IMG/VR virus record: IMGVR_UViG_3300029305_006221
Coordinates: 64,001 to 128,000 of that record
Source of the DNA: a virus
Strand: one strand, 5' to 3'
DNA length: 64,000 bases
The notes under the pieces were generated by a model that was given only the letters and a program-made list of their open reading frames with translations, made no database searches and was not told the origin of the DNA. Below are positions 12,315 through 41,794 of this stretch, one piece after another. Positions within the stretch are counted from its first letter, which is position 1; every line of letters starts with the position of its first letter. The translations under genes and the position numbers were made by a program.

Positions 12315-12338
12315 GTTTAATTAAGGAGGACATATAGC

Positions 12339-12869
12339 ATGGCTACTATTAAGCGTATTGGATTTGGTCAGGTAGAGCCTAACCATCTATCCGCTCAAAG
12401 AAACGGTCAGGTTTACGCATCTCTCCCTTGTAACAAGGATATTAAGATCCTTGAGAATGGTCAGTTCGTAAAATATGACTATGCTACAAACGGTGGCGAA
12501 ATTAACTTTACTGGCAAGGGCGAGTGGATGCTCGTTATGAATGAAGTAAAGCTTTATGATGATTCTTGGAGAGAGTCTTACAAGGATTTTGCTCTTCAAG
12601 CTGATAATTTTAATGGTGGTGTAATGGCGCCAAGAGTTCTTAAGACTATGCCTGGTGACATTTATACTACAAACTGCCTTGAGGGCGCAAATACCTCTGG
12701 CAAGGCTGTTTTTGAAGGTACTGAGGAAATCGACGTTGGTACTGAGCTTAAGATCAATGATGAAGGATTCCTTTCTACTGCAGGAACTAGCGATATCGTA
12801 TTCCAAGTTGTTAAAGTTTACACAATGCCTGACGGTCAACAGGGCGTTAAGGTAATGCGTATTAAATAA
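12339..12869 (+). CDS. head protein, possibly a decoration or minor capsid protein, 176 aa
   Basis: Intact ORF with no TAG. Strong AAGGAGG RBS. Lies between the scaffold-like gene and the major capsid gene. Confidence 0.45.
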   Translation: MATIKRIGFGQVEPNHLSAQRNGQVYASLPCNKDIKILENGQFVKYDYATNGGEINFTGKGEWMLVMNEVKLYDDSWRESYKDFALQADNFNGGVMAPRVLKTMPGDIYTTNCLEGANTSGKAVFEGTEEIDVGTELKINDEGFLSTAGTSDIVFQVVKVYTMPDGQQGVKVMRIK

Positions 12870-12886
12870 TAAGGGAGGGAATAATA

Positions 12887-13939
12887 ATGGCATTAAATAG
12901 AAATAGTTTATTTACATTAGCACACAAAGTTGCTGACGCTAATCCTTCTGCTCCCGTTGCTTATTCTTTCGAGAATAAGAACTATAGTTATGCAGATCTT
13001 GATAACACTCTTCGTGAAGAGCTTAATAGTCTTATTGGAACGTATGCTCTTTGGAGAGAGAATCACAATATTGTATTCGCACTTATGGAGGAAATTATCA
13101 CAGATAAGCTTCCTGCTAAGGTAATGCAGCAATATGGCGCATTTGCTGAAGTTAAAACATATAGACAAGGCGAAAAACCAATCTTTACACAGAAGATCAC
13201 AGAAGCTTCTCGCAGACGTGCAAAGCAGTTTATTGCAATGCCTGCAGGACTTGCTGGTCGTTACGAAGTATTCAAACTTGATGGACGTAGCTACGAAGTT
13301 AAGACTTCTGCTATGGCTGCTGCTTGTCAGATCGCTATCGAGGAATATCTTGATGGACGTGTTGACATGGCTACTCTTATCGACATCGTTATGGAAGGTA
13401 TGGATGATAGAATCTATGCTGAGATAGCAAGTTGTCTAATTGCTGCTGTTGATACAATTCAGCCTGCAAACAAGTTTGAAGGCGCAAGTTTCATCGAAGC
13501 TGAAATGGATTCTCTTCTTGCCGTAGCTGACTCTTATGGAAATGGTAGATCTACAATTTATTGCACTTTTGAGTTTGCTTCGCAAATGCTTCCTGATAAT
13601 GCTTGGGAAAAGGGCAAGATGTCTGACTCTATGAAGGACGAGTACTGGGCAAATGGTAGACTTGCAGGTTATAAGGGTCACCAAGTAATTGTTCTTCGCC
13701 AGTCTTATGTTGACGAGACCAACTCGAAGAAAGTTATTGATCCTGCATACGCATGGATTATTCCTGGCGGAGCTGAGAAGCCTATTAAGATTGCCTTTGA
13801 AGGCGATACAATGATTAAAGAAGAGGACAATGACGACTGGTCTAAGAGCATCCATTTCTATAAGAAAGTCGGAGTTGCCACAATGATTAATAATGATATT
13901 TGTGTTTATAAGAACACATCTCTCACTATTGATAGATAA
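12887..13939 (+). CDS. major capsid protein, 350 aa
   Basis: Intact ORF with no TAG. GGGAGGG RBS. Typical size and position. Followed by a strong terminator. Confidence 0.6.
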   Translation: MALNRNSLFTLAHKVADANPSAPVAYSFENKNYSYADLDNTLREELNSLIGTYALWRENHNIVFALMEEIITDKLPAKVMQQYGAFAEVKTYRQGEKPIFTQKITEASRRRAKQFIAMPAGLAGRYEVFKLDGRSYEVKTSAMAAACQIAIEEYLDGRVDMATLIDIVMEGMDDRIYAEIASCLIAAVDTIQPANKFEGASFIEAEMDSLLAVADSYGNGRSTIYCTFEFASQMLPDNAWEKGKMSDSMKDEYWANGRLAGYKGHQVIVLRQSYVDETNSKKVIDPAYAWIIPGGAEKPIKIAFEGDTMIKEEDNDDWSKSIHFYKKVGVATMINNDICVYKNTSLTIDR

Positions 13940-14022: not shown

Positions 14023-14598
14023 ATGATAGCTAACACAGATAAAATTAGAGTTGAAAATAGGGCTAATGCAATTGTTGCATATGTAGTTCCAGAGTCTAAT
14101 ATAATTAGACGTTTTGTTCCAGGAGAAACTAAAGAGATTACTATGAATGAATTGCGCCAAGCTGTTCAAATACCTGGAATTTATCGTTTAATTGAAAGCA
14201 ATTTAATTATTCACAGTAAGGAAGCGGCTGATGAACTTCTTCCTGGAGTAGAGCCTGAGTATTTTTATAATGCAAAAGATGTAGATTATCTACTTGAGCG
14301 CGCAACCCTTGATCAATTAAGAGATGCTCTTGATTTTGCGCCTGAAGGCGTTGTTGAACTTATTAAGGAAAGAGCTGTAAAAACTAAACTTAATGACGTT
14401 CGTAAAAGAGAAATTATTCTTGAGCAAACTAATTTCGATGTAACAAAAGCAATAGAAATTCAACATCTAAGTGAAACAGAAATAAAAACAGAAACTAGAA
14501 CAAGACGTGCTGCGCCTTTGACAGAAGAGGCTCAAAATAACGAGCCTGAGATGCCGGTTAGACGCGCTGCCGCACCTAAATATACCGTTATAAAATAA
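14023..14598 (+). CDS. hypothetical head-associated protein, 191 aa
   Basis: Intact ORF with no TAG. Ends at TAA 14596-14598. Confidence 0.5.
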   Translation: MIANTDKIRVENRANAIVAYVVPESNIIRRFVPGETKEITMNELRQAVQIPGIYRLIESNLIIHSKEAADELLPGVEPEYFYNAKDVDYLLERATLDQLRDALDFAPEGVVELIKERAVKTKLNDVRKREIILEQTNFDVTKAIEIQHLSETEIKTETRTRRAAPLTEEAQNNEPEMPVRRAAAPKYTVIK

Positions 14599-17732: not shown

Positions 17733-18635
17733 ATGAAGTTTGGTGTACGCGAAATATGCGATGTCGTATTTAAGGCTAAAGCAAAAGTCAAAATTGGTGG
17801 AATTGAGTTCCAACCTGGACAACCTGTTCTTTATATTGACTCTGCTAAGACATCTACAATTGAGGGCGCAGCTACTACAGTATATGCTCAGGGTGGCCGC
17901 GGAAATACTCGTTTAATTGCTTGGGAAGGCGAAAAAACTCTTACATTTACTGTTGAAGATGCACTTCTTTCTCCTATGGGATTTGCAATTCTTTCTGGAG
18001 CTGGTCTTTTAAAAGGAACAGATGCAGAGAAGGTAAATGTTCATACCACAACTATGGCTTATGCAGATGATGATGGTAAGATTGATCTTGCTGATGCTCT
18101 TGGCGCAGATAGCTTTAGTTCTGATCCAGATGCGAAGATTTATGTTCTTCCTGTTGCAGCAGATGGATCTTTAAATGGTAAACCTGTTCTTGGTGTTAAA
18201 GGAGAGGAAGCAGATGCTAAAACTGTTACTGCTACTGGCGTAAAGGGAGCTTGTTTTGTAGATTATTATATTGAGAAGACAAGCGATAAGGTTTCTGAGC
18301 TTCAAATAGATGCGGAAAACTTTGCTGGTTACTACTACGTAGAGGCTAGTACGCTCTTTAGACGTCAAGACAATGGTAAGGATATGCCTGCTGAAATTAC
18401 ATTCCCTAATGTTAAGATTCAGTCTAACTTTACATTCTCTATGGCTTCTACGGGAGATCCTTCAACATTTACATTCACAATGGATGCAATGCCTGGATAT
18501 ACCTATTTTGAACCTACTCGTAAAGTTCTTTGCGCAATTCAGATCGTTGAAGATACTTCTGATATCGAGGATATTAAGACAGTATTCCCTGTTAATAGTG
18601 AAGATAACTTTGCAGACGATAACTCAATAGTATAA
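17733..18635 (+). CDS. major tail protein (tail tube), 300 aa
   Basis: Intact ORF with no TAG. AAGGAGG RBS. Followed by a strong terminator and then by genes leading into the tape measure. Confidence 0.55.
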   Translation: MKFGVREICDVVFKAKAKVKIGGIEFQPGQPVLYIDSAKTSTIEGAATTVYAQGGRGNTRLIAWEGEKTLTFTVEDALLSPMGFAILSGAGLLKGTDAEKVNVHTTTMAYADDDGKIDLADALGADSFSSDPDAKIYVLPVAADGSLNGKPVLGVKGEEADAKTVTATGVKGACFVDYYIEKTSDKVSELQIDAENFAGYYYVEASTLFRRQDNGKDMPAEITFPNVKIQSNFTFSMASTGDPSTFTFTMDAMPGYTYFEPTRKVLCAIQIVEDTSDIEDIKTVFPVNSEDNFADDNSIV

Positions 18636-18701: not shown

Positions 18702-20381
18702 ATGAGTGCATTAAGTGATTACATTCATTTACATAGAGAAAACTATTTAGAGCATGGTACTTTTAGAAATACCGATAATAATAGTAATGATGGAAAAGAA
18801 GCTTTTTAGAGGTTTGCTAATCAAATTTAGAATCGTGCAACTCATTATTTAAATGATGAAACAAGATTGCGTTAGCTTGAAGAAACTTTTAATGAAGAAA
18901 GAAAAAGAAAAATAGAAGCTTTAAAAATTTTAGCTAAAACTCCTGCAGACTATACTAAGTTTATTGAAGCTGTTTTAAAAGCAGCAGAGCTAAAAAAATT
19001 TAATCCAAATGATATAGCAAAATGGCTCACAGTAAATGAAAACAATAATACTTTAAAATTAAATGAAATTTTTGAAAAAGCAGATACAACACAAAGAATT
19101 ACAATTCCTAATATTTCTAGTAAAATTAATTTTTCTTATATCGATACTCTTTTATCTCATATAAAGATTGGTCATCAAATGATAAAAATGCTACAAGATT
19201 AGAATACAAAAAATCTTTTAAGAGATAGATTAAATTTTTTAGCTGCTTCTTTATATCGTATAAAATAGCAGGCTTTAAAAGAAGGAAATAGTTTACGATC
19301 TTTTTATTCAATTAACGATAATAAAATTACTGGTTTATTAGGAGAAGGACAAGTTTTTTTAGACAAAGGTAAAGTAGCAATAAGCGCACCTATGAATAGA
19401 ATTATTAATAATGAAATTATTTCAATTTCTAAAACCGCAAGACTAAGTTCTGTTATGAGTAATATCTTGGGAGCAACAGAAGAAGTTCTGGGAACAATTG
19501 GCGCACCGCTTTTATAGGATATAGCAAATGAAACAATGGATGGGTTTTTAAACAATATAAAATATATATTGAATAATTAGAATATTACTAAAGGCTAGTC
19601 CACTTCATCTATGAACTTTAAAATAGATGATATTGTTTTTAATAAATACGAATTACAAAAAGATAAATATAAAAATTATGTTACAAAACTTGCTGATGGC
19701 ACTCTTACATTGGAGTTAAATTATGATACTAAAAACAAAGCTGACTTTTCTATAAGTGTAGATGGCAATAATATAGGGGTAAGTTCAAAAGCTATTGATT
19801 TAAGTAAAACAGGATACACTAATAAAAAAGGAGAGTATATTCCCGCATAGGTAACTTTACAAAGTGGAACTAATTTATTGGCTTACTTATTAAAAGCCCA
19901 AGAAATTATAGATAAAACTGGAACCCATTTTTTAAATGCTTATGCGACAGGATCCTTAACCGATGAAGCAGACAAGGCCTTAACTATCTTCTTGGTCTAT
20001 ACTGCATTAACAGGAGATATTCTAAAAAAAGAAGGCAATGCTGGATTACTATATATTTATGATACCAGTAATAAATTACCTGATGGTAGTAATAGGGTTC
20101 ATTTTTTTAGCATTGGTTCAATTATATAGTCATTATTAAAAAATGAAAATCCAGAAGATGTGGTATTATTTTCTCCGTCTTTGCAAAGTATATCTTAGGA
20201 ATTACAAAAAGCAAACGAAGAAGTAGATCCAAAAGACTGGGAGTTAGAAGAGAAGAGTAAGATTGGCGCAGCAATTTCTGCTCGTCATACAAAAGTCTTA
20301 GGAGAAGCTAGATTAACAATTTTAAGTATAGCTTTAACTAATGATCATATAAGAAGTTTAATTAATAATAAAATTACTTGA
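18702..20381 (+). CDS. hypothetical tail protein, 559 aa if all 11 in-frame TAG are read as sense
   Basis: AAGGAGG RBS, then ATG 18702. Frame 0 is free of TAA and TGA up to TGA 20379-20381. Joins ORF-track ORFs 19611 and 19878. Confidence 0.45.
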
Positions 20382-20447: not shown

Positions 20448-20981
20448 ATGAATTTTACAGAAATGAATTTATCTATTAATAATAATGTTAATACTATTAA
20501 TTTTAATGATAATATTATTATTAATGTATTAAATTATTTACCAATTAAAGATAAGAATGACCTTATTTCAATAGCTCTTTAGAATAGCGAAGAGAATGGA
20601 GTATATAATTTAATTAAATTACATATGTATTTTAATATGTATTTAACTATACTTTATACAGATATTGAATTTGATAATGAAATGCTTGAAAATAATATGG
20701 ATGAAGTTTATAATATTCTTAAGAGTGCTGGCATTATTGATGCAGTTAGAAATGCTATTCCTGAAAGCGAGCTTACTTATCTTGAGTCAACTCTTGATCA
20801 AACAATGTGGAATAAAATGAATCACAAGAATACCTTGGCTTCCGTTATCAATAATTTTATTGAGAATTTGCCAGTTAATGCGGAGACTGCTAAGGGTATT
20901 ATAGAGAACTTTGATCCTGCACAATTTCAAAAAATAATGGAATTTGTTCAAGCGGCGAATGGAAATAGACCTATTAATTAA
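20448..20981 (+). CDS. possible tail assembly chaperone, 177 aa with 1 TAG
   Basis: AAAAGGAG RBS, then ATG 20448. Includes ORF-track ORF 20625..20981. Lies directly upstream of the tape-measure gene. Confidence 0.4.
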
Positions 20982-21084
20982 TTGGACTAAATAAGAAAAT
21001 ATATTTACCCTTATTATTATATTAATAATAAGGGTATTTCTATAGGTATGGAAATACAAAAGAGAAACAAGGAGGAATATTTAA

Positions 21085-24000
21085 ATGGCTAATTAGGGAA
21101 GAATTACTTTTGGCATTGGTTTTAATGTAGATTAGTCTGGTTTAAATTAGCTTAAGGCTTCTTTAGCAAGTTTATAGAATATGCAAACTAGAGATTTAGT
21201 AAATGTAGATTCTAAAGGGAAAGCATAGGCTAAATTACGTGAAATTAAAGAAATGGCTGGCCAAGTAGAAGCTGCTCTTTAGCAAAGTTTTAACCCTGCA
21301 TTAAACACCTATAATATTGATACTTTTAAAAAGAAATTAAATGAAAATGTAGGAACTTTATCTTAGGTAAAAGCAAAAATGGCAGAGGCTGGCGCTGAAG
21401 GTACAATAGCGTTTAGAAATTTAGCTACTGCAATTTCTTCAACGAAATTACCTTTAAGAGAATCTCATGATTTACTTAAGGCAATGGGCACCACCTTAAT
21501 GAACACTGTAAAATGGAGTATTGCATCAAATGCAATTAATACTGTAACAGGTTCTGTTCAAAAAGCTTGGAGCTATACAAAGTAGCTTGATGAATCATTA
21601 AATAATATAATGATAGTAACCGATAAAAGCGCGGATTCGATGGCATAGTTTGCGCGCTAGGCAAATAAAGCCGCAAAAGAGTTAGGTAAAAGCACTAGAG
21701 ATTATACGGATGCTTCTCTTATTTACTATCAATAGGGTCTTGATGATGCATAGGTAAAATCTAGAACCGAAACGACATTAAAGGCGGCAAACGTAACGGG
21801 TTAGTCTGCAGATGTTGTATCTGAATAGTTAACTGCCGTTTGGAATGGTTACAAGGTATAGGCGCAAGAAGCTGAGTTATATGTAGATAAACTTGCGGCC
21901 GTTGCTGCAACTACGGCGGCCGACCTTGAAGAACTTTCAACTGGTATGTCAAAAGTTGCTTCTGCAGCTAATACAATGGGAGTAGATATTGACCAGTTAA
22001 ATGCAATGTTAGCAACTGCTGTTTCTGTAACGCGTCAGGCGCCTGAGTCAGTTGGTACTGCATTTAAAACTGTATTTGCGCGTATTGGCGATATTGAAGC
22101 TGGCATAAGCGATGAAGCTACTCTTGGTGAGTATACGAAATAGATGCAATCAATGGGTATAAATGTCCTTGATACAAATGGCAAACTTCGTGATCAAGGA
22201 GACGTAATTGAGGAAATTGGTAATAAATGGAATCAAATGTCTCGTGAGCAACAAATTGCTCTTTCTCAGACTATGGCTGGTACCAGACAATATAATAATC
22301 TTTTAGCGCTGTTTGATAACTGGAATATGTATGAGCAAGCAATGAAAACCTCTGTAAATGCAGCTGGAACATTGCAGAAACAATAGGACACTTATATGGA
22401 ATCTATTGAAGCGCATATGGAGCAACTTAGAACTGCCGGCGAGCGCGTTTATCAAGCATTGTTAGATCCTGATAGTGCCAATGACTTACTTGATGTATTA
22501 ACTGAAATAGTTGATAAATTTGGTAGCTTTATAGAGTCTATTGGCGGCGGTGGTAATTTATTGATGTCGCTTATTCCTATTTTAACTAGAGTATTTTCAG
22601 GTTCTATTGCAACAGGCTTAACAACTTTTGTAACAAACCTTAAAAATGCAGGCCAAGAAGCAACAACATTAAAATCGGTGCTCTAGGGGATAAATGAAAT
22701 AGGATCCTTAGACAGTTTGACCGAAGCTGATAAAAAAATTAATGATTTAAGACGCACTTTGGTGCTTTTGCGACAACAAGGTGTTATAACAATAGAAGAA
22801 TTTAATTCAATGTCTGCAAGTGTTACAGAGTATGGAGATGCGATTTCAGAAATTGAAAGAAAAAAAGAAAATAGAGAAAAAACTAAAGATAGATTAGGAG
22901 TTTTAACAGATGCAGGCTTAGCAGAAAAAGGTAATCATAATATAGCTAAAGATAAAGCGAAAAGAGAAAAATATTTCGACAGAGTCTATACTTTTGGAGA
23001 TGAGTTAAGCTCCAAAGGATTATCGGAAGAAGCCATTAAATCTTCTATCGGAGATAAAAACGCAGCTCTTGCAAAGAGTGGTGCAGCAAATGCTTATAAA
23101 GAAATTAATGACGCATTGATTTCAATTAAAAATAATATAGATGATATTGATAATAAAAATAAAGAATTTACTAAGGGTATTTAGACCACTATTGCTAATT
23201 AGGAAAAATATAGTAGAACCATTATAGATTCTAAGCGATAGTTTGAGAAACTTGTGGAAAAAACAGAATCTTTAAAAACTTTTTACACTGATACGACTGA
23301 AGGAAAAAAATTTGAAAATTATGAAGCTAGAATTTCTAAATTATTATCAAAAGAACATCTTGACTCTGAAGAAATGGCGATATTGCAAAAATTGCAAAAT
23401 GAATATAGTAGTTTTATTAACAGTCATTTACAAGAAGTGTCGTCTTTAGGCAGTAAAGAGGAACTAGAATCTATTGATATTAAAATTAAAGAATTAACTG
23501 CTTCATCAAATAAGTTTAAACAGTCTATTGAAGATATAAATAAAGCTCATAGTAATCAAGAAGATTAGATTGAAAAAATTAAGTCGAAGTTTGAAGAACT
23601 TGATAAAGAAGCTAAAAAATTAGAAGATGCAAATTTACTTGGCGGAGCAAGCAGAGGAGATTTAACTAAAAGAGCTAATAGCATTAGAAATTTACTTGAT
23701 GACACTAGTAAAAGAGGAGAGCTCTTAAAAGATCCAGAAAAATTATCACATTTATATGAAGAATATGAGGCGACACTGCAAAAAGCAATAGCAGAAGGTA
23801 GAAAAGAAGTTAAAAATTTATCTACTGATATAGATAAGGGTATAACTGATGGAGTTGGAAAAGCAAAGGCTCAAGCAGAAGGTCTTGGAGAGGCTTTAAG
23901 AAATGCTCTTTCAAAAGCTTAGCTAGAGTTAAAGATAAAATAGTTTGTTAATTTAACTTCCAATATTGCAATGGCTGGTAATGCACTTCGAAATTTAATT

Positions 24001-27000
24001 AATTTAGGAGACATTTGGAATAATCAAGATTTAGAACTAGGGGAAAAAATATTTTAGACAATAACCAATGTAGGCTCCTCTTTAAGTATGCTTCTTCCTA
24101 CCATTACAATGATAACAGCTGCAATTTCTAAGAAAACTGCTGCAACTACTGCTTCAACAGGCGCTACAGCCGCTTCTGCGATAACTGATATGTTTTATGC
24201 TAAAACACAGGACGAAGTTACCGAAGAAATGACTGACTAGGCATTTTGGTTAAAATCACTAAAAAGTCTTTAGAACGATCTTAATGATGAACAGAGAAAA
24301 GCAATTGCAAACACATTGAAGGAAGCTGCGGCAAGAAAAAAGAATAATGAAGAGCTTGCTAAAGAAGCTTTGCTTAAAGATACTGAGCAAAATATAAACG
24401 ATAATAAAAAATCTTTTAATCTCTTTAAATCAAAAAAAGCTCCAACAACAGCAGCAGGTAAAGTTTTAAATGTTGGTGGAGGCGCCTTAGCGGCGGCCGC
24501 CGCAGCATATATAGGAGCAACTTTAACTTCTAAGCTTGTTACCTCTTTGTATGATTAGCAAGAAGCCAATTTTAAAGCGGCTTCAGAAGCAGCAAAATAG
24601 GCCGAGTCTAATTTAAACAAAGTAACCGAAGCCTATGACAATTTATCAAATTCACTTTCTAATATTTCTTCTTTAAAGGATTCTTTAAAGGATTTAACAG
24701 AAGGTAGTGTTGAATGGGAAAAAGCGGTTGCTGATATTAATGCTGAAACTAGGTAGCTTATTGAAACATACCCAGAAATAGCTAAAAATGGCTATTATGA
24801 AAATGGAGTATTAACCCTAGACTCAGAAAGTTAGTTAAAAGTTGAAAGAGAATTGTTAAACCAAAGATATAAAGCTCAAAACTCTAAAATAGTAGCAGAT
24901 GAGACTAAATAGGCAGCAGAAATTGCTGCAAAACAAGAAAGTCTTGCAGGCGAGCTTAATTATTTGAATGAACTTTCAGAATTGGGGACTGGGGCAACAG
25001 TAGCAATTTCTCTTGCGCTGGGTGGTATTTTTGGGTTAGCAACTGGTGGATTAGCAGTTCCAATTATTGCTGGATTAGGACTTGGAGCCTTTGGAGGAGG
25101 ATTTTCTACATACCTTGAAGAAGAAGAAGAAAATGATACAGAAGAGGCTTTAATAAAAGTAGTAAACAAATTAGCAGAGTCAGAAGAGAAAGACTTAAAT
25201 GGATATTTACAGAATAGCTCTAAGCATCTCGCAGAATTGTTAGACAAGAATGTTGAAGAGTTAACAAATGCAGAAAGAGCCTTATTGAGTAATACCAGTG
25301 AAATAAATGCTTTAGCTTAGGAGATAAGAAAAGCAAATGAGTTAAAGCTCATGCAAGATACTGAGTTTTATCGTCAAAGATATTTGTCTCAAGGATATTC
25401 TGTAGAAGATGCGGCTGCAATGGGAGGTATGACTGCATCAGCTACCGATTATGCTGCAGAAGAAGAGGCGATAAGTAAACGCGCCGAATAGATAATGAAA
25501 AAGAAGGGGAATAATAAAGATCTCATTATCTAGTGGGCAGAATCTTAGGGAATTACTTTAACCAAGGACGATATTAAAGAAACAGGCGGAGCTAATTTTA
25601 AATATAAAAACGCTAATGGCGAATGGGTATCAATGAGCTATGAAACAATAGCTCGCCAATAGGCCACCACAGAAGTAAAAAATACTGCCTCTAGTGAAGT
25701 AAATGCATTAGAATACAAGAAATAGCTTAACGCAATTGTAAAAGGTATTTCTTTAGAAGGAACAGATATTTTAAAATCACTTTTGGCTTCTAATAAAGAA
25801 ATTTTAGCTGAAAATATTGAAGAGTTTAATAATGCCACTATTGATGAACTACAAAAGATATGGGAAAGGGCTGATGAATTAAATTTATCAAGTGAGGCAA
25901 AAAAAGCGCTTGGAAAAACTATTGAGGAAGCTAAAATATATTAGGAAAATATTGCCACAGTAGAAAACTGGGGTGAAAGCACTTATGATGCTATTAATAA
26001 GATTTTCAATGATAATGGCGAATGGTCTAACATTTGGAATAATTTTAGTGCCTCTTAGATTAGAGCTTTTGGTAAAGCATTAACTAAAATCGAATTATTC
26101 GGTGGAAAACAAGCAGCTAAAGCAGCAGAGTCTATATTTAGTAAGATGACTGATGCAGATGCAGAATCTGTGCTTACTAATATGAACTGGGAATCAGAGA
26201 CTTTACTTGCAGACTTTTCTGCAGAAATGGAAAAAGTTGGTAAAGTTTTAGATTATACTAGTGGAGAAGGTTTTGCGATTGCGTATGCTTTATCTCGTGC
26301 TAATGATTAGATGGTGATTTCCAAGGAAGCGTGGAAAGAAACTGCAAGCATTCTTGAGTCATTAAATGAAGAGCAAGCATCGTTAGATATGGATAATTAT
26401 TAGCATCTTATTGAGATGTATGGAACAGCTATCTCTAAGTATTTTACTCAAATGGAAGATGGCACTTATAGATTGATAACTGCCTCTACTGATTTTGCTA
26501 AGACTATTGATGACTTGGAAGAAAGAAAAATAGAAGCAGCTATTAAGACTGAAATTGAGTCTATTAGGACTTTTGACGAAGAGTATGATAAAATTTTAAA
26601 TGATTTTGTTTTTAATACGATACCTGATTCCGACGATGGAATTTCTGCTTCTAAAATTAAAACGCTTGATGAAATAATTAAGGTAAAAGGATATGAAAAT
26701 GCTAGTTTAACAGGAAAAGATCTTAATAAAACTGAAGGTTTTTCTGAATCACAAACTCATGCGGTGTTATAGGGAGCACTTACTCTTGATGAATATAAAG
26801 GATTAAATAAAGTAATAGATTTTGTTTATACTAAAACATATGGCGATAACTGGCGAGATAATGGTGATGCTTGGAATGATATGACGGAATAGGTTGGCGG
26901 AAAGAATTTTATCATTGATTTAGACCCCGCTGGAGATTCAACATCATTTACTTATGATGAATTACAATAGGAATTTACAGAAGAAGAAATAAAAAAATGG

Positions 27001-30000
27001 TTTAAAAATACGACATCATCTGGAGGATATTATGCAAATAATGTTGAAGCTAACTATGCACAGCTTACTAACGCAATCGCTAATCAAGCAGCCAAAGAAC
27101 GAAATGAAGCTCTTGGAGTCGATAATAAATATGTAAAAAAATCTGATATTGCTCAATGGTTATATTAGTTATCTGCTATTGGCGCGTTAAATAGTGAGCT
27201 TTATACCAAATATTCACAAGAATTAGACGGACTTCCCCCAGAGTCGGAATCATTAAAAGTGCCAGAAGATGGTGGAGATTGCGCTTTTGTTGCTGATGTT
27301 AAAAAAGACCTTGAATCAAGTGATGTTAAACCAGATACTGAAAAATTAAACGAATATATTGATCAGTGGATTAGAAGCGCAGATTCTCAAGAAGAGTTTG
27401 ATGAACGAGTAGCAGAAGCTCAAGGACTAGCTTCAACAGTTTTAGGAGACGAGTTTGATGAAAAAGCCTTTAAAGATACGGTAAAAGAATTACAAATTTC
27501 ATTAGGAGTAAAACTCGAAACTAAGGCGCTTGAAAACTTCAAAACTGAGATGGATCAAATCTCTAATTTAATTTCTAATTTAGATAGTAAACTATCACAC
27601 TTATCATCTGTGGCAGATTCCTTGTATGGACAAGATAGACTAGATTATATTGAGGAATAGAATAAGGTTATTCAACAATAGATAAAGCTTCTTGAACGTC
27701 AAGCTAAGATTGAGTAGCTAGAACTCAATAGGCAAAGAACGTTTACCCCTGGAGAAAACAACACTACTTATGAGGCTGCGTTAAAAGATCTTGCTCGATT
27801 AGCAGGCTATGCAAATGCTGATATTATGAGTGAAGCTGAGCTTTGGAACGCACTCGGTATTACAGATGTAACAACTCAAGAAGGTGCTTAGAATTCTCTT
27901 TTAAATATAAGAGAAATGTTTGCTCAGCGTGGAATAGCTGCTGATGAAAATCTTAATAAGTTATACCTTGCAGCGATTGGTAATCTAGAAACTATTTTGG
28001 AGCCAGTTACTTCTGGAAAAACAAAGTATGCTATAGATGAAAAGAAAGCTCAAGAGTTAGCTAATAATCTTGTTAGTTTTGAACATAAAATTGAATTTAC
28101 TTTAGATGAAGGTGAATTAAAAAGAGAGTTTGAGGCACTAAAACGAGAAGTATTTATTGATGAAGAAGATTTTTCAGAAATAACTAAATCTTATATTACA
28201 GATTATCAAACCGCAATTAGTGATCTTACAACTATTGAAGATGCTCTTAAAGAAATTGATAGTTTAAACATTTCTGCAGAAGCAAAGCTTGAGAAAAGAA
28301 AAGAATTAACTTCTCAATACGGAGAAAAGTTAAAAGAGATTTAGTAGATTGAAGAATCTATTGATCAATAGAGACTTGCAGCTTTAAATAAAATTTCTGA
28401 GGGATATGAAAAACAAATTTCTTATCTTGAAGAAATTAATGGTCTTTTAGATACTCAAAGAAGCATGATAGAGCTTATTTATGGCGAAGATGCGTATGAG
28501 ATGTTAAATTCTTATTATAGTTCTTCTCTTGATAATGCATTAGCTATTCAAGAAAGCACTCAATAGAGATTTGCAGCAGCTGCTTCAAACTATAGCAGAA
28601 TTAACGATACTACAATGAGTGACGAAGAACGCGAAGCTATTATTGAAGAATATACTGCAGCAGGACAGGCAAGCGCAGAAGCGATGTATTCGGTAATGGA
28701 AGCGCGCCGTGATAAATATCTGAATGATACAGAGATTGCTATAAAGAATTTTAATAAGAGTGTTTATGGTAGTTTAGATACAGAGCTATTTACCAGTGAA
28801 TGGGATTGGACTAAATCTCAAATGGATAAATACTATGATTCTGTATAGAGCTTGTTCGAAAAAGATAAACTTGCTGTTCAATTTGATACTGCGGCTAATG
28901 AAGCTACTTCACTTCGTGCACAAGAGCAGATTAATAAACTTAAGAGAGAAGAATTGGCGCAACTTGAAGAAATTGAGAAATTAAGTGAGTATGATGTGCA
29001 ACATGCACAAAAGAAGCTTGATATCCTTTAGGCCGAAATTGCGCTTCGTGAAGCTCAAGAGAATAAAACTCAAATGCGCTTAATGAGGGGCGCAGATGGC
29101 TCTTATAGTTATCAATATGTTGCTGATTAGGCGGCAATTGTTGAAGCTTAGAATAAACTAACAGAAGCTCAAGATGCTTTATATAATATGGAACTAGATG
29201 AATACACTTCTTCTATTGATGAATTTTAGGGCGCAATGTAGGATTTAGCGGATGTAATTCGCAAATTCGGAGAAGATGGTATTTACACCACAGAAGAATT
29301 AGCATTGATTGAGAAGCGTAAAAAAGAAATTTAGAATTTAGCAGAGAGAAGCATAAGAATTAGAACCAATGTTTTTGAATCTGCTGAGTTAGCGGCTTCA
29401 ACTTTTGGTAAAGATCTTTCTGAGCTGACCCAAGGAACTGTTCTTTAGATGACTAAAGATATCGATGCTATTATTAATGAGGTAGCAAAAAATGGTATTG
29501 ATAATAGTTATCAAAGTTTAATGGATACAATGCTTACTATTTCTAATAAATATTTAGATAAATAGAAAACTGGAGCAGAAGAATTGGCCACTGTAATTGG
29601 TTCTGCTGATCCAAGTTCTGGATTAATCGGCTCTTATTAGACATTATCAGAAAAATAGGATGCGGTTATTAAACAATATTAGACTGAATATTCAGAGGTA
29701 TCTATTCTTGCTGGACAATATGATATCCTTAAAGCTTCTCTTGAGCGAGTTAGGGATATGTATATTGCAATTGCAAACGCAAGAAAATTAAGCAATAAAG
29801 AAGAGGAAGAAGAGATTTCTGGACCTGGTCCTGACAATACTAGAACTGGTGGACTACGAAAAACTAATAAAACAAGTAGTGAGGTTGCTAGTTTATTTAA
29901 TCAAGAAGTTTATTTGTATTCAGAAAGAAGCCGATTCGATGAAGAGGGAAATAGAGTAGCAAGCTGGAGAACAGGAAATATTCATACCTATAATAGTTCT

Positions 30001-30588
30001 GGTGAATTAGATATTATTACTGTTTCTGATCATACTGGTAAAGATATGAAGAACACTAAATATACGGTTATAAGTTCAGATATATGGACAGATGCAGAAG
30101 GTTGGGGATATGTGCAAGTGCGAGATAAAGATGGAGAAATTTTTTATCTTCCAATTGAATTTTTAAAAAATGAGAATAAGAATTCAGAGAACGGCCATTG
30201 GGCAGTATTAAATTCTGGATTATTTGATGGTCTAGAAAAATATGATACTGGTGGATACACTGGTGAATGGGGCACAGATGGTCGTATGGCAATGCTTCAT
30301 GAAAAGGAATTGGTTCTTAATAAAAAAGATACTGAGAATTTCTTAGACGCACTTTCAATTCTTCGTGAGCTTAACCTTTCAATGATGGCGCAAATCGGCC
30401 GCTTTGGAATGCCATTTAGCAATTCACAAAATTCTATCTTATAGCAATTAGCTTCTCAACCAATTGAGCAAAATGTTACAATTCAAGCAGAGTTCCCGAA
30501 TGCGACAGACAAAGATGAGATTAAAGAGGCGTTTAATGACCTTATTAATCTAGCTACTTAGTATGTGCATTAGGATGATAAATTTTAA
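21085..30588 (+). CDS. tail tape measure protein, 3167 aa with dozens of TAG codons read as sense
   Basis: AAGGAGG RBS, then ATG 21085. Thirteen ORF-track fragments from 21379 to 29758, all in frame 1, are joined only by TAG. No in-frame TAA or TGA until TAA 30586-30588 across the inter-fragment gaps I checked by hand (23568-24316, 24558-24964, 25320-26416). TP901-family core motif IGNKWNQMSREQQIALSQTMAGTRQYNNLLALFDNW at about 22200. Long Ala/Gly-rich and coiled-coil regions. Confidence 0.8.
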
Positions 30589-30642: not shown

Positions 30643-33600
30643 ATGAGTAATATAGTTGAAAATTTATTTTCAGCGGTTGATATTCAAATTGATAGTAAAT
30701 TGCGCCAAACGGACTATACGCGCACCATAATAGGAACTGTCATTGGATGCATTGACCCAGAATAGCGTATTTATAAGATAAACTATCAAGATACTATATT
30801 TGAAGCTTAGGCGCCGACTGGAGAATATGGTAAAGATGAGAAAGTTAAGATACTTACCACCAATGTTGAAGATGAGTCACTTAAAGTGATTGTTGGGCGC
30901 ACCTCAGTTAGTGATTTAACCACTTTAAAAGAGAGCTCTTTATATACCTCTTTAGGCTCTTCTATTGTAGAGGATAATGAAGAGGATGATATTGTTGAAT
31001 ATACTCTTTCTGATTCTAAAACAATACTTTATGAAAAAGGCGAGTCTAATAACCTTTTGAAAGTGAATGAGACTTTATTAGAAAAGCATCTTAAAGAGTC
31101 TATGATGTTTTCTATTGGCGCAGAAGTTTTAGCTGAACTAAGTTCTGGAAGTATAGATTTAGTTTTTGAATTAAGTTACAAAGGATAGCTTGTTAAATCT
31201 GCTGTAAAAATAGAAATTACTCAAAATAGCTTTGATTTTAAATCTTATCAAAGTTATTTTAAAGATTATGAATTTGATACTATTGAATCTATTTATTTGG
31301 AAAAAATAAATGAATTATCTAATTCAGAAGTATTAAAAATTAAAAATATAACCTTTAATATTATAAAAGAAAACGAAAGTGCCAATCGTATGTAGGCGGT
31401 TATCCATGGATATGAAGGAGATACTCTTCACGATAAAGTAGAGCAGATTACGATTGAGGCAAGAATGATGTAGGGCGCCACTTTTATAGATCCTGATTTA
31501 TGTGGTTTTTAGTGGTATATTGAGGATCCTTGGGAAGAGAGCGGCTGGAAAAAATTGGAAACGGCGCGCTGGTAGAGACCTATTGTATAGCTTACTTCAG
31601 AAGATATATATTATTCTCCAATGAAATATAAGGTAGAAATTACTTATGGAGAAATGATTTTTGAAGCTAATACTATTTTAAAGAATTTAACCCCTTCTTA
31701 TTCTGGTTTATATATCTCATAGCAAACAGTAGACTCTTATGAAAAAGTTCTTATTGCAATGAATGAAAATGAAAAAGAGTGTCAATATAAATGGGAACAC
31801 ATAGATGTTTATGGTCAAAAAGACACATCCTATTCTACTGAACAATAGATATCAGTGTTCTTAGATAGTAATTATAATCTTTGGAAATGCCATTACAGAG
31901 ATGGTGACAAGTATATTGGATATGCTTCTATAGTTATTAATAATGATGATTTATTATACTTGCCTGAATAGACTGTGGAATTCGCTTTTAGCGATAATGA
32001 AGATCATGCACCTTTTGATGGACCTTGGGCACCTCGTATAGGAGAAATAAGTAATATTGATAAACCAATACTTTGGAAGCGAGTTACTAAAAATATAGAA
32101 GAAGGTAAAAATACAATAGTAATAAGTTCGTGTAAAGAAAGAAATATTGCTTATATAGAGACTAAACAACAAGATCTTTATCGTATTTGGAGAGTATATT
32201 ATACTAATGGTTTTATTGAATATAATGATATGTTAATTTCAGAATAGGATGATGGATACTAGTATATTCTCTATGGAGAGAAAGATGGGTTGATTGATAT
32301 TGATAAGAAAAAAGAAGCAACTTTAGAATCGGATATAAATACTGATTATCCATATCTCTGTTATGAAAAAACAAATACTGAAACAAGGATGGTATTAGCA
32401 AAACTAGGAACCGCTGACTATACTGGAATTCCTTCATTAACCTTCTATTGGATTGGTAATAATTATCCTTATGTAGGAGTTGAAAATAGCAAGGTTTATT
32501 TTGGGAAGCCTGATAAAGAATATGACGTATGGACGACAGAGGCTTTAGAAATTGATAATGAATATAAAAATAGATATAGAACTGAATGTCCTTATAACTA
32601 GCTTGGTAAGCTACACTATAACGAAAATACTAAAGATTGGAGTAATTTCGTTTTAGATGGTAACTATTCAGTAGATGGTCTTCCAGGAGCGCCCGGCGCG
32701 CCAGGAGAGCCCGGTAAAGCCGCTAAAAGCTTTCGATTAAAAACGGATGCTTTAATTTATAAAAAATCTTCTCCAGAATATATTGCTTTTTCAATAGAAA
32801 TAAGCGGATATGAAACTTCTGAATGGGAAATTAAAGCGGAAGTTCTTAAGGATAGCATTTGGACATCTGTAAATGATTTGGGTTTTGGAATAGTTTTAAA
32901 TCCAGATTCTAAAATTTTAACATTAGAGCATATTTCATCATTATATTCTGAAATTCGCTGCACTGCAGAATTAACCTCCAAAGAAGCGGTTGATGTTGTT
33001 ACACTTACTCGAATTGAAGATGGAGAAGCTGGTTTTAATGTTATTATTTCTAATCCGAATATTATTTTTGATAAAATTAATAATACTGCAATAGAAGTTG
33101 CAGATATTGAAGTATACCAAGGGAAAGAAAAAATTGAATGCTATGACACTAAGCCTATAACAAACGATTCTTCTAAGCGCTATGTCGCAGTAGTATCAAA
33201 CAAATATCAAAAAGAAAGTTTAAATAAACCTGACAATGCTTTAATTTAGAATTTAGTATTTTAGAAATCAGCGCCAGAAGAAGAAAAGTTGACAGCAATG
33301 ATTTCTAACCCAGGCGAGTCAGGTAAATATTATTTGCAAATTGAGATATATGATAACACAATTGTAGCAAACGAAGGATCTGTCCCAGAAATAATCTTGG
33401 ACTCTAGTATTAATTGTTTGGTTATCGATAATGGTCTTCGAATTAATATTTATAGTGAAAACTACTCTTTTTAGAATGCAGAAAAAAAATCAGTTCCTTT
33501 AGAGATTGCTGTTTAGCAAGGTCTTGCAACAGTAGTAGATAGGACAGGCACAATTTTAACAAATGTTGGCTATGAATTTTAGTTTTTTCAAGAAGGTTAT

Positions 33601-35592
33601 ATTACAAAAGATGGAGAGGAAGTAAAGGATGAGACCTTTATTTAGAATATCCTAACAAAGCAAGAAGGAGCCTATTATCAAATAGAGAATCCTTGGGGAT
33701 TAGGGCTAGAGTTAGAATATACCATTTATAAGATTAAATTAAATTTTATGATTTATCTTGATGGAAAACAAATTGGAGAGAATATTTAGTGGATTTATAT
33801 CTATTATAATACAAAAGGGGAAAATTCTATTCCTTATTTAGAACTAAGCTCTTCTAATGAAACAATAATGATTGATGAAAGCTTTAATCCTATTAATAGT
33901 TTTGTTAATTATTTTAATTATTATATCAATGAAGAAAAGCAAATAATAGATATTGAAAGGTTGTCAATTTCTCCCAAATCTAATGATACCTGGGCTTATG
34001 AATATAAAAAGCTGGGCAATGATCAAGTAATTTTCACATTGTTAGATTTTCCAAAATATAACGGTGCGGAATAGTTGTTTAATATAATATATACCCCTGA
34101 AACTGGAAATCCAGTAAGAGGAATGTTTACTTTAAGAGTAGCGTAGAAAGATTTTTAGTATTAGATACTTTTTAATGAACACCCTAATGGTATTATTGAT
34201 ACAACAAATTCAAAAGCAACTGATATCTTTTTAGAAACCATATCTATAAGTTTTAAAGATGATGAAAACATATAGCAGGTTTACACTACTCCCGATTCAT
34301 TACCAAGTGGGTATTAGTTATCTTACCTAAAAAATAATGAAGAAGAAGTTATTTTTACAGGAAATGAAGAATTTTCTGTAGAACTAGGATTAACAGATAC
34401 AGTAATATTTAATTTTAAAAAATTAGATACTTCTTATGGAAATTTAATAATTTTATCAAAAACATTAAGAAGTATTTTTAATGGATCAGAACTAACTACT
34501 TATAAGGCTTTTAATACTTTGACCAATAATGGAGAAAATACTGGTATCATTTATTTAGCTAAAAATCTTGTAACAGATGGGGGAGATTATGATATTGAAG
34601 ATATGAATGGATCAAAGTATCGATATGTTCAAGTATACCCTCGTCCTATTTTTGAAGATTTTGACGGGTCTAATAAATTCTCTACCATTCCAAATGATAT
34701 TGGAGGAATAGGTATTCTTTATAATGCAGATTCTGTTGAGCTTTTTATTAATGCAAGTATGATTAAAACTGGAATTCTTAATGCAGACCTGATTAGTGCA
34801 GGAGCAATAAAGATTGGAGATAAATTCTATGCTAATGCAGATAAAACAGCGATTGATCCAGAAGTAAAAATAGGTGGTTTTAAAGTTGCAGAGACCTATT
34901 TATATTCAGGAGAACGCACCAGTGTATGGGATACTCAAGCAGAGGGCGCATATTTTGGAACTAACGGAATTTCAGTTGGAAGTGGATCCTCTGGTATGAC
35001 TGCCTCTTTTGCAGTTGACACAACAGATAAAGGCATTGTTGGAGGATGGTATTTTACTGGATAGGGTTTTTAGACTAAAGATGTATATAATCAAACTTAT
35101 GCAAATTAGTCTAGCTCTATTGATGCATTTGGGCTTGGACCGGCGCCAAGCGATCAATCAAAAGGATATTATATTTTAAACGACGGAACTGCATTTTTAA
35201 AATATCTATTATTAGAAGAATATGCTGTAACAAGTTCTGATGAAAAATATAAAAATTCTATTTCTGCTAATTTAGAAAAATATTCTATTTTATTTGATTA
35301 GCTACAGCCAGTTAGTTATAAATATAATAAAGATGAATCATAGTAGACTCATTTTGGTTTTACAGTATAGAAAACACAATAGGCTTTCTCAAAAGCTAAC
35401 TTAAATTCATAGGACTTTGCTATTGTGCAATGTTCAAACGATATAAATGGTTTAGTGTATACTGAATTCATTGCACTTAATACCTATGAAATTTAGAAAC
35501 TTAAGAAATAGGTTTCTGAATTAGAAACTCAAAACAGCAAATTGGAAGAACGTATTGCTGCACTTGAAAAAATTATTATCAATTCTAATTAA
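30643..35592 (+). CDS. giant multidomain tail protein (distal tail, tail-associated or fibre type), 1649 aa with a short collagen-like G-x-y run and a C-terminal coiled coil
   Basis: AAAGGAGAG RBS, then ATG 30643. Frame 1 is continuous through ORF-track ORFs 30886, 31975, 32290, 32878, 33289, 33868 and 34519 via TAG only. GLPGAPGAPGEPGKA at about 32680-32725. Ends at TAA 35590-35592. Confidence 0.55.
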
Positions 35593-35680
35593 TTGATTTT
35601 AAATAAAAATAATATAATTATAGGAGTTAAGAAGTGCTATATTTCTTAACTCCTAGTATTGGAAGACAGGAGGATATATA

Positions 35681-36010
35681 ATGGTAATTCAAAAAAACCT
35701 GAACTTTGTTTCAAATACTACAATTCCTGTTTTATCAAAGACATTTATTAATGCTTCAGGAGACGTATTATCTTTAGAGATAAAGGGTAATGGAGTTATT
35801 TACATTGATGGGCGCCTATAGGATGACTCAGATTGGTTCTCAATTGCGGGAATCAATTTAAGTGATTTTTCAGTGTCTAAAGATGGATTCACTAAACCTG
35901 GACTTTATGAGATAGGCGTCATTGGCATTAGACAACTTCGCGCGCGTGTTGAGGCTGTTCAAGACAATGTCTCTGTTCATGGTTAGATAATCAGCTCGGA
36001 GGAAACTTGA
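35681..36010 (+). CDS. hypothetical tail protein, 109 aa with 2 TAG
   Basis: GGAGGA RBS, then ATG 35681. Ends at TGA 36008-36010. Confidence 0.45.
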
Positions 36011-36011
36011 T

Positions 36012-36896
36012 ATGGCGATAGATACGATTGCAAGAGGCTTAGCCACTTCTATTTATGGGCCAGACGGCAGAATTGCCGCAAATAAAATGCCTAAAGTTGA
36101 AATTACAGATACTACTGGATTCACTTCGATAGGTAAGTTAACAGATCCTAATTTAGTTGCTGGTAAAACCTCAGAGGAAATTTTATTAATGATGCTCTTT
36201 GGTATCGTAACGCCTGCGCTTAAGGCGCCTAGCGTGCGCCTCGTATTAAATGAAGAAATTTCTTATTTAATAGTTGGAGAAAAGAAGACTATTAATGGAG
36301 TTGTTTAGTTTGATCGAGGATCGATTGAACCAGCTTATGGCACATCTGGCAAGCGCGCAGGTCTTCCTACTTCTTATCAGGTAAATGAAAGTGCTTATTC
36401 ATCAAATGATTTATCACTTTCTTTTTCTATTGATATAATTCCCGTTCCTGGAGAGAATATTCTTTCTTACGCAGTATTTTATAACGCCGGAGAATAGCCT
36501 CTTAATAGTATTGGTTAGCCTTTTGAGGCGCCATTGCCTGCAGGAATGGTATCTGGATCAATTTCTGTTGATGGGGTTTATTAGCTTTATTCGGCCGACC
36601 ACGTCCCAATGAGTTTTAATTGGTTTGAAGATACTGATGGAGAAGGATATCAATCGATTTTCTTATCTGAAGGAAGCGGAACAAAGCAAGCTTTCGCGCT
36701 CGATTCAAGTGTTTCTGTTATAGGCTTTAAAGCTATTGATCCTATTACGAAAGAATGGATTTGGTTAGGCGGAGAAGGACCAGAAGTTTCACTATCTTTC
36801 TTTGATATTGCAGAAGACAAAGAAAAAAATCGTAAAATCTATACTCATAACTATTTTACAGTTGGAGAAAGAGAATTACGAATTTATGTAGCTTAA
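36012..36896 (+). CDS. hypothetical tail protein, 294 aa with 4 TAG
   Basis: Joins ORF-track ORFs 36012..36308 and 36609..36896 in frame 0. Confidence 0.5.
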
Positions 36897-36907
36897 GGAG
36901 GTAAAAT

Positions 36908-37453
36908 ATGGCTAGATATAAAGGTATTTTTAAGGCTGCCGCAAACTACGAGCCATAGATTGCTGCACCTTTTGATGCAAGAATGTTAGTTGATGCGAAA
37001 GCAGATCTAACAGATAGGAGCATTTGGCAATAGAGTAATGGAGATGTCTGGGTTTACTCAGGCATGATCGTAGCTGTTGCGAATGATGAAAATAGCGAAA
37101 ATAATGGCATTTATATGCTATTAAATAGCGCGCGCTTTGAAGAAGAGTCATCTTGGCGAAAGATGTCAGATGATAGTAGTATTGCCGCGCTTGATGCTGC
37201 TATTAAAGAATTACAAGAACAGATTAAGAATATTGAAATCTCTGGAGAAGGTAGTGTATCTATTGAAGTAGATACAATGGATGATCTTCCTAAAATTGGA
37301 GATAGCGATACTACTTATTATGTTAAAGAAAACTTAAGTATCCAAAGATGGAACGAAGCTACACAATCTTATTTAGCTTTTGGCGGATAGGGTAGCGCGC
37401 CTGAATTGGATATAAAAATTATTTACGGAGGAAATGCAAATGTCACAGATTAA
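36908..37453 (+). CDS. hypothetical tail protein, 181 aa with 3 TAG
   Basis: AAGGAGG RBS, then ATG 36908. Includes ORF-track ORF 37064..37390. Ends at TAA 37451-37453. Confidence 0.45.
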
Positions 37454-38786
37454 TACTAGAATTGTATTAAGAAATGATACCAAGGCGAATTGGGAAGCAG
37501 TCAAAGATACTGCTACTCTTAAACCTGGTGAGTTTGGTGTTGAGACCGATACTGGTTTATTCAAAATCGGTAAAGAAAAGTCTGAAGGGGTTCTTTGCAC
37601 TTGGGCAGAACTTGAGTATGCAAATGATATTCCTGAGATTGATCTTTCTGACGTAACCAACGATGTTCAAGTCGTTGAAGGCACTATTGACAATCTTGTT
37701 GCTGGCAAGGTTGTTGGAGATATGGGTATTGTTAAAACTCCTCTTTATGAAGGAGCTACAACTTATACCTACACAGCTTATGTATGGAATGGCGAAGCAT
37801 GGGCGGCAATGGATGGAAACTACAATGCAGCTAATGTTTATTTTGACCAAGATTTAACTTATACTACTTCCGTAGGTGCGCTTAAACTTGCAAGCGGAAA
37901 GAACTCTGATACTTATGCGGCTAAGGGTAAATCTTTAGAGGAAGTTATTAGACGTATTATGGCAGAGACTATTGCGCCTACAATTACCCAGGCTTCCTAT
38001 GGAATGAGCGCAAGCTACACTGCAGATAATGGCACTGAGGTTGGTAGTAAAATCACTGCTCTTAAGTGGGATGGTACATTTACAGATGGTAGCTATAGCT
38101 ATGGTAGATCTTCTACTGCAGATGGTGGCGCTGGCAATGTTTCTACAACAAAAGGTGCAGGATGTACTGCAACTTATTCAATGGAATGTGATCAAGCTGG
38201 AACTACATCAACCCCTGCTACAGTAGATGGAACTTGGACTCTTACAACTCCTTTCTAGATAACTTCTACTTCAGAAGCTACTGTTGGTAAGATTACAACT
38301 CATTGTGTTATTAGTGATGCTAAATATTGGCCTATTAATAATATAAATGAAGTTGTCGATGGTAAGCTTAGTGGCAAGACTGTTGATAAGGAAAGCACTG
38401 TTAAAGTTACTGGATTCCGTGGATGGTTCTGCGGCTGGAAGAATGGAACAAACGCACTTGCTGATCCTACTGCTATTACAAGTGATCAAGTTCGTGCACT
38501 TACTAAGAAAAATGGCTCTTGGGAGAGCTCAATGAATGTATCACAAATGAAACAGATGTTCTTCTTGGCGCCTGCTGGTAAGGGTTATAAACCTGCTATT
38601 AAAGACTCTAAGACAGACGCGCCTCAGACAGTTGAAGGACCTGTTACAGTATATGTAAAGGGTGCTAATAACTATGTAGCTGCAGGTGATGAGACCACTA
38701 ATGGCGGTATGGCTTATGATATGTGGTATGTAAACAACGCAGCTGCTGCTTCTGGTAGCGCTACGCTTAATATAACAAAGGCTTAA
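37434..38786 (+). CDS. tail fibre protein with a HylP/tail-fibre-type N-terminal domain, 450 aa with 1 TAG
   Basis: N-terminus MSQINTRIVLRNDTKANWEAVKDTATLKPGEFGVETDTGLFKIGKE. ORF-track ORFs 37434..38258 and 38532..38786 are joined in frame 0. Confidence 0.6.
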
Positions 38787-38799
38787 GGAGGAATAAATA

Positions 38800-41691: not shown

Positions 41692-41794
41692 TTGTAAACA
41701 CCTAATATAAACAATAACAGGCGCCTTTGGGCAACCCTGGGCGCCTGATAACCATAAATTAAAAAATTTTAATTACGAAAAGGAGAAAATTATT

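Follow-up and report, generated by a model that had tools for sequence, protein, structure and literature searches.

Among described phages, the phAss-1 group (phAss-1, OQ749652; BK046881; BK025033) comprises large phages of the human-gut type in which TAG encodes glutamine. In these phages, TAG codons interrupt the gene for the tape measure protein (TMP) when it is read with the standard code, and its recoded products were reported as 3149, 3150, and 3209 amino acids (aa), respectively (Babkin et al. 2023, PMC10607447). Here, we analyzed a 64,000-nucleotide (nt) window of the viral record IMGVR_UViG_3300029305_006221 (IMG/VR; positions 64,001 to 128,000 of that record), in which a plus-strand frame at window positions 21085-30588 is likewise broken by TAG and encodes a predicted 3167-aa TMP when TAG is read as glutamine. 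The phAss-1 TMP shares the N-terminal PF10145 module (aa 131-477 are 33% identical) and has a C-terminus of the same kind, and the two phages have accessory genes for NrdD/NrdG and dUTPase in common. They differ in arrangement and in recoding: the TMP gene lies ~18 kb upstream of the TerL gene in the phAss-1 record but 12 kb downstream of it in the window, and our own count gave 110 TAG codons in the phAss-1 TMP (3150 codons) compared with 69 here. Suppressor tRNAs are encoded in the phAss-1 group, whereas none was seen in the 64-kb window. Members of the proposed genus Phassvirus (phAss-1, BK046881, and BK025033) share 80-86% nucleotide identity and synteny. Because positions 6000-30600 of the window had no megablast match in the phage collection, phAss-1 included, and because TerL is 42% identical to that of phAss-1, these comparisons place the phage outside the proposed genus and at most in a wider group.

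In the closest cultured relatives, Enterococcus phages VRE9_4, H1, and EF1 (~134-142 kb), the PHROG families between portal and TMP are arranged as in the window. In VRE9_4, this order is portal phrog_2739, 4088 (probable capsid protein), 30998, 3853, 29637, 31155, 6123, 4051, 2729 (probable tube protein), 30570, and TMP phrog_34405. The TMP N-terminus of these phages is 30.5% identical to that of the window over aa 1-470, and TerL is 43% identical. The annotated VRE9_4 TMP is also very long (2673 aa), but it is 494 aa shorter and is written in the standard code. In VRE9_4, phrog_3267 tail proteins follow the TMP where the window has an S74 fibre, and a 452-aa protein, unlike in the window, separates the chaperone-position gene from the TMP gene. 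The giant Bacillus siphoviruses Tsamsa and Thrax1-5 (Tyrovirus group) encode TMPs of 3032-3150 aa in genomes of 157-169 kb, with an N-terminal module that is distantly homologous to that of the window (23.5% identity, E 1e-16). They differ in using the standard code, in being temperate, in having TerL proteins only ~30% identical to that of the window, and in having a tyrosine recombinase gene that adjoins the TMP gene. Further away, gpH of phage lambda (853 aa, with a tail of ~135-150 nm) has the same proposed ruler mechanism but no detectable sequence similarity to the TMP of the window, and the G/GT frameshifted chaperone of lambda was not found upstream of that gene. Thermus phage P74-26 is a siphovirus of an unrelated lineage with an extreme tail, about twice the length predicted here.

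Profile searches identified the predicted product as a TMP. Its single Pfam match was PF10145 (PhageMin_Tail) at aa 194-399, which had an E value of 1.3e-30, scored 107.2 bits (cutoff 33.2), and spanned all 201 profile positions. Eleven PHROG families annotated as "tail length tape measure protein" also matched, the best being phrog_34405 and phrog_4211 (E ~1e-70; profiles 2675 and 2625 positions long). The gene occupies the position of a TMP gene, after the tube- and chaperone-position genes and followed by fibre genes. Domain content, gene position, and conserved ends thus agree in marking the product as a tape measure protein.

In our best explanation, the phage falls in a broad group with phAss-1, Enterococcus phages EF1/H1/VRE9, and PMBT24, a phage of Enterocloster. 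Its TerL shares 42-45% identity with those of Geobacillus virus E3, Enterococcus phages H1/VRE9/EF1, and phAss-1, and 70% with that of an unannotated human faecal contig. PMBT24, a cultured member of the wider group, is a siphovirus by electron microscopy (EM) (PMC11035940). No sheath protein was recognized, and the best explanation of the sequence is that the gene resides in a large, gut-type, siphovirus-like phage. We found no EM data in the literature for Enterococcus EF1/H1/VRE9; EF1 is named a myovirus in one paper's table, with no data shown. Megablast of positions 6000-30600 found no near-identical genome among GenBank phages, and the phage is therefore new.

A homologue search with the predicted product returned 4275 proteins at E <= 1e-5. 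The closest relative was P0001, a 3024-aa TMP with 52 TAG codons that is encoded on a Logan contig (locus L004). Gene order at L004 is the same as in the window, with a 514-aa protein, a 177-aa protein, the TMP, and a 1672-aa S74 protein. The gene, its putative parts, and its start signal are as follows:

21069-21075, plus strand: Shine-Dalgarno sequence AAGGAGG, 9-nt spacer to the TMP ATG, by direct reading of the sequence
21085-30588, plus strand: tape measure protein gene, by frame count, PF10145, PHROG TMP families, and glutamine at TAG columns
21085-22650, plus strand: conserved N-terminal module, aa 1-520 including PF10145, 80-95% identical to P0001
22558-25107, plus strand: part with four or five hydrophobic Gly/Ala-rich segments, by Kyte-Doolittle scan
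22650-28400, plus strand: putative fast-diverging central ruler part, low in proline, with no DNA similarity and 10-30% protein identity to P0001
29857-30159, plus strand: predicted small beta-rich domain, aa ~2925-3025, by AlphaFold2; variable among homologues
30235-30588, plus strand: conserved C-terminal module, by family alignments; 94% identical to P0001

The frame at 21085-30588 starts with ATG and spans 9504 nt, or 3168 codons including the TAA stop. Before that stop it contains 69 in-frame TAG codons and no TAA or TGA. Given the base composition of the gene (A 37%, T 29%, G 21%, C 14%), ~195 TAA or TGA codons would be expected in 3167 codons, and the probability of observing none is ~1e-85. 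The TAG count, on the other side, is almost exactly that expected from composition (69 vs 69.6), and TAG is therefore not avoided in the gene. Each of the other five frames carries 136-457 stops (240 and 457 in the forward frames, 136-229 in the reverse frames); antisense open reading frames (ORFs) within the gene are 101-121 aa long when read with code 15, and the skew in strand composition is consistent with coding on the plus strand. No TAA/TGA-free frame in the window is longer than this one, and its predicted product has a mass of 352 kDa and a pI of 4.7. These results confirm a single continuous, real gene for a 3167-aa TMP. The original prediction, made from the letters of the window and a list of its ORFs, had joined the TAG-separated fragments into one 9.5-kb gene for 3167 aa; both its coordinates and its length proved exact, re-translation with table 15 gave a continuous frame ending in TAA, and the overlooked TAA or TGA codons that it named as a risk do not occur in frame.

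We then aligned the product, with glutamine substituted at each TAG, with the 120 best of the 4275 homologues. Glutamine made up 34% of the aligned residues under the 69 TAG codons and 37% of those under the 97 CAA/CAG codons; over all aligned columns, it was not among the eight commonest residues (each >=6.3%). At five TAG positions (aa 217, 240, 248, 991, and 3159), glutamine is invariant or nearly so in the homologues. All of the 52 window genes that we checked terminate in TAA or TGA and none in TAG, while in-frame TAG codons occur in the genes for TerL (7), portal (7), and the 1649-aa fibre (38) and in many other late genes. Because TAG columns match glutamine as often as CAA/CAG columns do, sequence comparison indicates that TAG encodes glutamine in this phage (code 15). 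This has a direct bearing on annotation, which is where the main value of the finding lies. Under the standard code, the gene splits into 70 fragments (median 25 codons, longest 253) and the phage seems to lack a tape measure; reading TAG as glutamine restores a protein that predicts a tail of ~0.45 µm.

The original prediction also called the TMP exceptionally long, which did not hold within its family. The best 120 of the 4275 homologues are 2032-3301 aa long (median 2806), and seven of them have at least 3167 aa. The TMP of Thrax2 is annotated at 3031 aa. In IMG/VR we found 34 related loci, on contigs that reach 175 kb; 23 of them have complete TMP frames, which are 2758-3051 aa long. The code of these relatives varies: some are standard (0-1 TAG), others read through TAG (7-78 TAG), and one is apparently TGA-recoded. 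In this last one (L033, IMGVR_UViG_3300021431_000157, from 10001), the TMP frame has 25 TGA, 1 TAA, and 3 TAG in 3000 codons, a pattern that points to recoding of TGA in a member of this TMP family. A TMP of ~3.2 thousand aa is thus normal for the lineage, and with recoded TMPs of 3149-3209 aa already in print, the phage is new while its TMP belongs to a described type.

The ends of the gene and its centre differ in how well they are conserved. Compared with L004, the TMP ends show 76-85% DNA identity and the wider flanks 76-94%, including 94% over 35441-39951. The central 5.7 kb (22650-28400) has no detectable DNA similarity to L004. Despite this replaced centre, the TMP differs in length from P0001 by 143 residues only. 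The comparison marks the centre of the TMP as mosaic or hypervariable with its length kept, and retention of length with replacement of sequence is the behaviour expected of a ruler. Across the 120 homologues, the conserved regions are aa 1-550, ~900-1300, 2300-2800, and the last ~120, and the variable ones are aa 600-900, 1800-2200, and 2800-3000. The C-terminal module carries the invariant pattern TGGYTG.W...G.....H.KE.VL...DT.N.L, followed by IEQ.V.I.AEFPN.... Self-BLASTP of the TMP detected no internal repeats and Tandem Repeats Finder only trivial short arrays, so the length of the protein does not come from recent tandem duplications.

The composition and predicted structure of the protein are largely those of a helical TMP. 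Ala, Glu, Leu, and Lys are abundant in it and Pro makes up 0.8%, and the hydrophobic Gly/Ala-rich segments are found at aa 492-510, 996-1014, 1127-1152, and 1300-1341. We modeled the central region by proxy, using aa 995-1947 of the homologue P0004, which align to aa 1148-2106 of the TMP at 35% identity. In the AlphaFold2 model of the proxy, 75% of the residues are helical and 3% are in strands; some of the helices are 44-55 residues long, and shorter ones are confidently packed over ~400 residues. This indirectly suggests that the central TMP is mostly alpha-helical, as expected of a TMP. Closer to the C-terminus, the model of aa 2867-3119 (mean pLDDT 58, blocks up to 83) consists of a helix, a beta-rich domain of ~100 residues, a disordered GGYTG stretch, and two helices. 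A Foldseek search of the beta domain against the PDB gave no significant match (best E 0.07), and an SH3b-like match was discarded at a Foldseek probability of 0.18. A PDB sequence search with the whole TMP had no match at E <= 0.01.

To predict the tail length, we used four cultured sets of phages that share the TMP N-terminal module and for which EM measurements are published. PMBT24 has a TMP of 1508 aa and a tail of 238 nm (PMC11035940), or 0.158 nm per residue; Perkons has a TMP of 2439 aa and a tail of 381 nm (PMC13245101), or 0.156 nm per residue. The Thrax1-5 phages, with TMPs of 3032-3150 aa, have tails of 431 ± 28 nm (PMC9703825), which corresponds to 0.139 nm per residue at the midpoint of 3091 aa, and Tsamsa, with a TMP of 3123 aa, has a tail of 440 nm (PMC3903500), or 0.141 nm per residue. 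A linear fit yielded 449 nm for 3167 residues, and the individual ratios spanned 442-500 nm. Because tail length tracks TMP length in these calibration phages, a predicted tail of ~450 nm (range, 440-500 nm) is reasonable. With ~4 nm per tail tube ring, such a tail would contain roughly 110 rings. The earlier estimate of 450-480 nm, which assumed ~0.15 nm per residue, overlaps with this range. Its description of the tail as far longer than typical also stands, since usual siphovirus tails measure 50-200 nm (PMC10034513). The size is nevertheless short of extreme: the tail of P74-26 reaches nearly 1 µm (PMC10034513).

Our analysis very probably describes a classical protein ruler in a code-15 phage, that is, a very long recoded TMP that sets a tail of ~450 nm. 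Lambda gpH was reportedly established as a tape measure by Katsura in 1987, and work on TP901-1 and T5 is also said to underlie the general picture of TMPs. By analogy, a few copies of the mostly helical TMP would lie extended inside the tail tube, with the conserved C-terminal module anchored in the tip complex, and the tube protein would polymerize around the TMP from the tail-tip complex to the TMP N-terminal end. Tail length would then follow TMP length. At infection, the TMP would exit first, and the hydrophobic Gly/Ala-rich segments may help to form a channel through the Gram-positive envelope. With 69 TAG codons to read, full-length TMP would be made only when a suppressor tRNA-Gln(CUA) is available, and this need would link the assembly of tails to the recoded phase late in infection.

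Several observations weigh against this interpretation. No tRNA gene, and hence no suppressor tRNA, was detected in the 64-kb window by ARAGORN or Rfam, so the decoding agent is assumed to be elsewhere in the genome. Judged from relatives, the full genome is probably ~130-160 kb, of which the window is only part, and phages of the phAss-1 group carry two or three tRNA-Sup(CTA) genes per 133-138 kb genome (PMC10607447). The canonical chaperone with a -1 G/GT frameshift was not found at 20448-20981, where the 177-aa gene has no in-frame slippery heptamer and TAA/TGA codons block both alternative frames. Such a frameshift upstream of the TMP gene is common, though not universal, among TMP-bearing phages. 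The many short packed helices in the centre and the beta domain of ~100 aa mean that not every residue need give 0.15 nm, and the helix estimate comes from the model of a 35%-identical homologue rather than from the chain encoded in the window. Finally, the Tsamsa TMP ran as bands of 280 and 100 kDa (PMC3903500), which makes processing of the TMP possible.

The distribution of TAG within the gene could mean more than simple recoding. In the first 264 codons (21085-21876), 15 of the 21 glutamine codons are TAG (71%), compared with 37% in the remainder (Fisher p = 0.004), and the recoded relative L024 shows a similar front-loading (p = 0.0008). Dense, 5' front-loaded TAG might act as a translational gate on a costly 9.5-kb message until suppressor tRNA accumulates. 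The genes for the most abundant virion proteins (capsid, scaffold, and tube) and most of the minus-strand metabolic genes lack TAG, which would also fit such a gate. However, front-loading was absent in the five other recoded relatives tested (L020, L022, L026, L027, and L034), and we rejected it as a general rule. The frequency of TAG in the TMP gene also equals the compositional expectation, and the TAG-free structural genes have a higher GC content and may simply differ in history. We consider a gate rather unlikely. Quite unlikely, too, is its extension to a two-part device, in which the ~5.7-kb centre, swapped or diversified at constant length among phages that are otherwise nearly identical, would evade host or prophage systems directed against the entering TMP (for example, Ltp-type superinfection exclusion) while the 5' TAG codons act as the gate.

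A different possibility is that the long TMP is real while the tail is far shorter than 450 nm, with folded or cleaved parts of the protein serving envelope penetration. The packed helices of the proxy model, the beta-rich domain near the C-terminus, and the two bands of the Tsamsa TMP would fit such a role, and SPbeta-type TMPs bear an annotated lytic transglycosylase domain. In contrast, we detected no enzymatic domain, lytic or otherwise, in the TMP of the window with Pfam, PHROGs, or the PDB sequence search. All cultured relatives with EM data show 0.139-0.158 nm per residue of the full TMP, including those in which 3032-3150 aa accompany tails of 431-440 nm, and TMP length is held at ~2.7-3.3 thousand aa across relatives even though the centre is replaced. 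A short tail is thus very unlikely. That the TAG codons are true or leaky stops, and the locus a pseudogene in decay or a series of small ORFs that makes no full-length protein, can be excluded for practical purposes: the window has no suppressor tRNA and phAss-1, as annotated in GenBank with the standard code, has only TMP fragments, but decay would bring all three stops as well as frameshifts, the complete lack of TAA/TGA is far from chance, TAG falls at invariant glutamine positions of the TMP family, TerL, portal, and other essential late genes show the same TAG pattern with no gene ending in TAG, and relatives encode tRNA-Sup(CTA) (PMC10607447).

For specialists, a protein ruler of this size is expected, as equally large recoded TMPs were published in 2023 and EM of phages with TMPs of 3032-3150 aa has already put the length rule to the test. 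The homologue search, with thousands of matches in standard-code as well as TAG-recoded relatives, shows TMPs of 2.7-3.3 thousand aa to be common in metagenomes, and siphoviruses with very long tails are therefore probably regular members of their communities.

Upstream of the TMP gene, we annotated the following features:

17733-18635, plus strand: probable tail tube protein, 300 aa (phrog_2729, virion structural, E 1.7e-53; same slot in VRE9_4; no TAG)
20448-20981, plus strand: 177-aa protein in the position of a tail assembly chaperone (phrog_30570; an orthologue has a faint YomO match)
21006-21036, plus strand: perfect 14-bp AT-rich hairpin between the 177-aa gene and the TMP gene

The 300-aa protein is the probable tail tube protein, a role assigned from its position only. 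Between it and the chaperone-position gene lies a gene for a 559-aa protein (18702-20381) with 11 TAG codons, which had no PHROG match and no credible Pfam match; its orthologue in L004 is the 514-aa protein. A second hairpin lies within 21006-21056, in the same gap upstream of the TMP start codon. This 104-nt intergenic region is 100% identical in L004 as a whole; it might serve as a terminator, an attenuator, or a processing site.

Directly downstream of the TMP gene is one further large gene:

30643-35592, plus strand: 1649-aa fibre or spike protein (Peptidase_S74, collagen-like GxP stretch; 38 TAG)

Near its C-terminus, this protein contains an intramolecular-chaperone domain of the Peptidase_S74 type (aa 1532-1586; 33.6 bits, cutoff 22); the C-terminus also matches a tail-fibre PHROG, and the protein has a GLPGAPGAPGEPG stretch. 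Its 1672-aa orthologue in L004 also contains PF13884. Because of the Peptidase_S74 domain and the collagen-like GxP stretch, features typical of fibres and spikes, we read it as a fibre or spike rather than as a tail-tip hub. The original prediction had taken it for a tail-tip protein whose size fitted a long tail, a view that these features do not favor; the size of this protein is no evidence on tail length. Multiple long fibres had been held to fit a long tail as well. Several fibre-like genes do follow at 36012-47151, though their size and number are uninformative on this point. Candidates for the distal-tail or hub proteins are two genes at 49320-52888 (561 and 622 aa; phrog_1887, "tail protein", and phrog_32343), which lie ~19 kb downstream of the TMP gene, past the fibre block; in most siphoviruses, such genes are directly behind the TMP gene. 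Within the tail fibre block is also a gene for a family 2 glycosyltransferase (47184-48164), which is followed by one for a small membrane protein.

The use of TAG is uneven among the late genes. TAG-free genes with a higher GC content (0.38-0.41) lie at 10908-13939, 14023-14598, 17733-18635, and 41795-48520 and comprise the scaffold-like, 176-aa, probable capsid, and probable tube genes as well as the fibre gene block. In their neighbours, TAG accounts for 40-60% of the glutamine codons and the GC content is 0.28-0.34. Differences in expression level, or a separate origin of the TAG-free genes, could account for this unevenness. On the minus strand, the NrdD (anaerobic ribonucleotide reductase) gene at 59276-62350 contains an intein splicing domain (aa ~177-504) and one TAG, and it adjoins a gene for an NrdG-like 4Fe-4S protein (58797-59279). 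A 169-aa minus-strand protein at 56499-57008 matches DUF3882 (a Lactococcus phage M3 protein); six of its seven glutamine codons are TAG, whereas the minus-strand genes around it do not use TAG as a glutamine codon.

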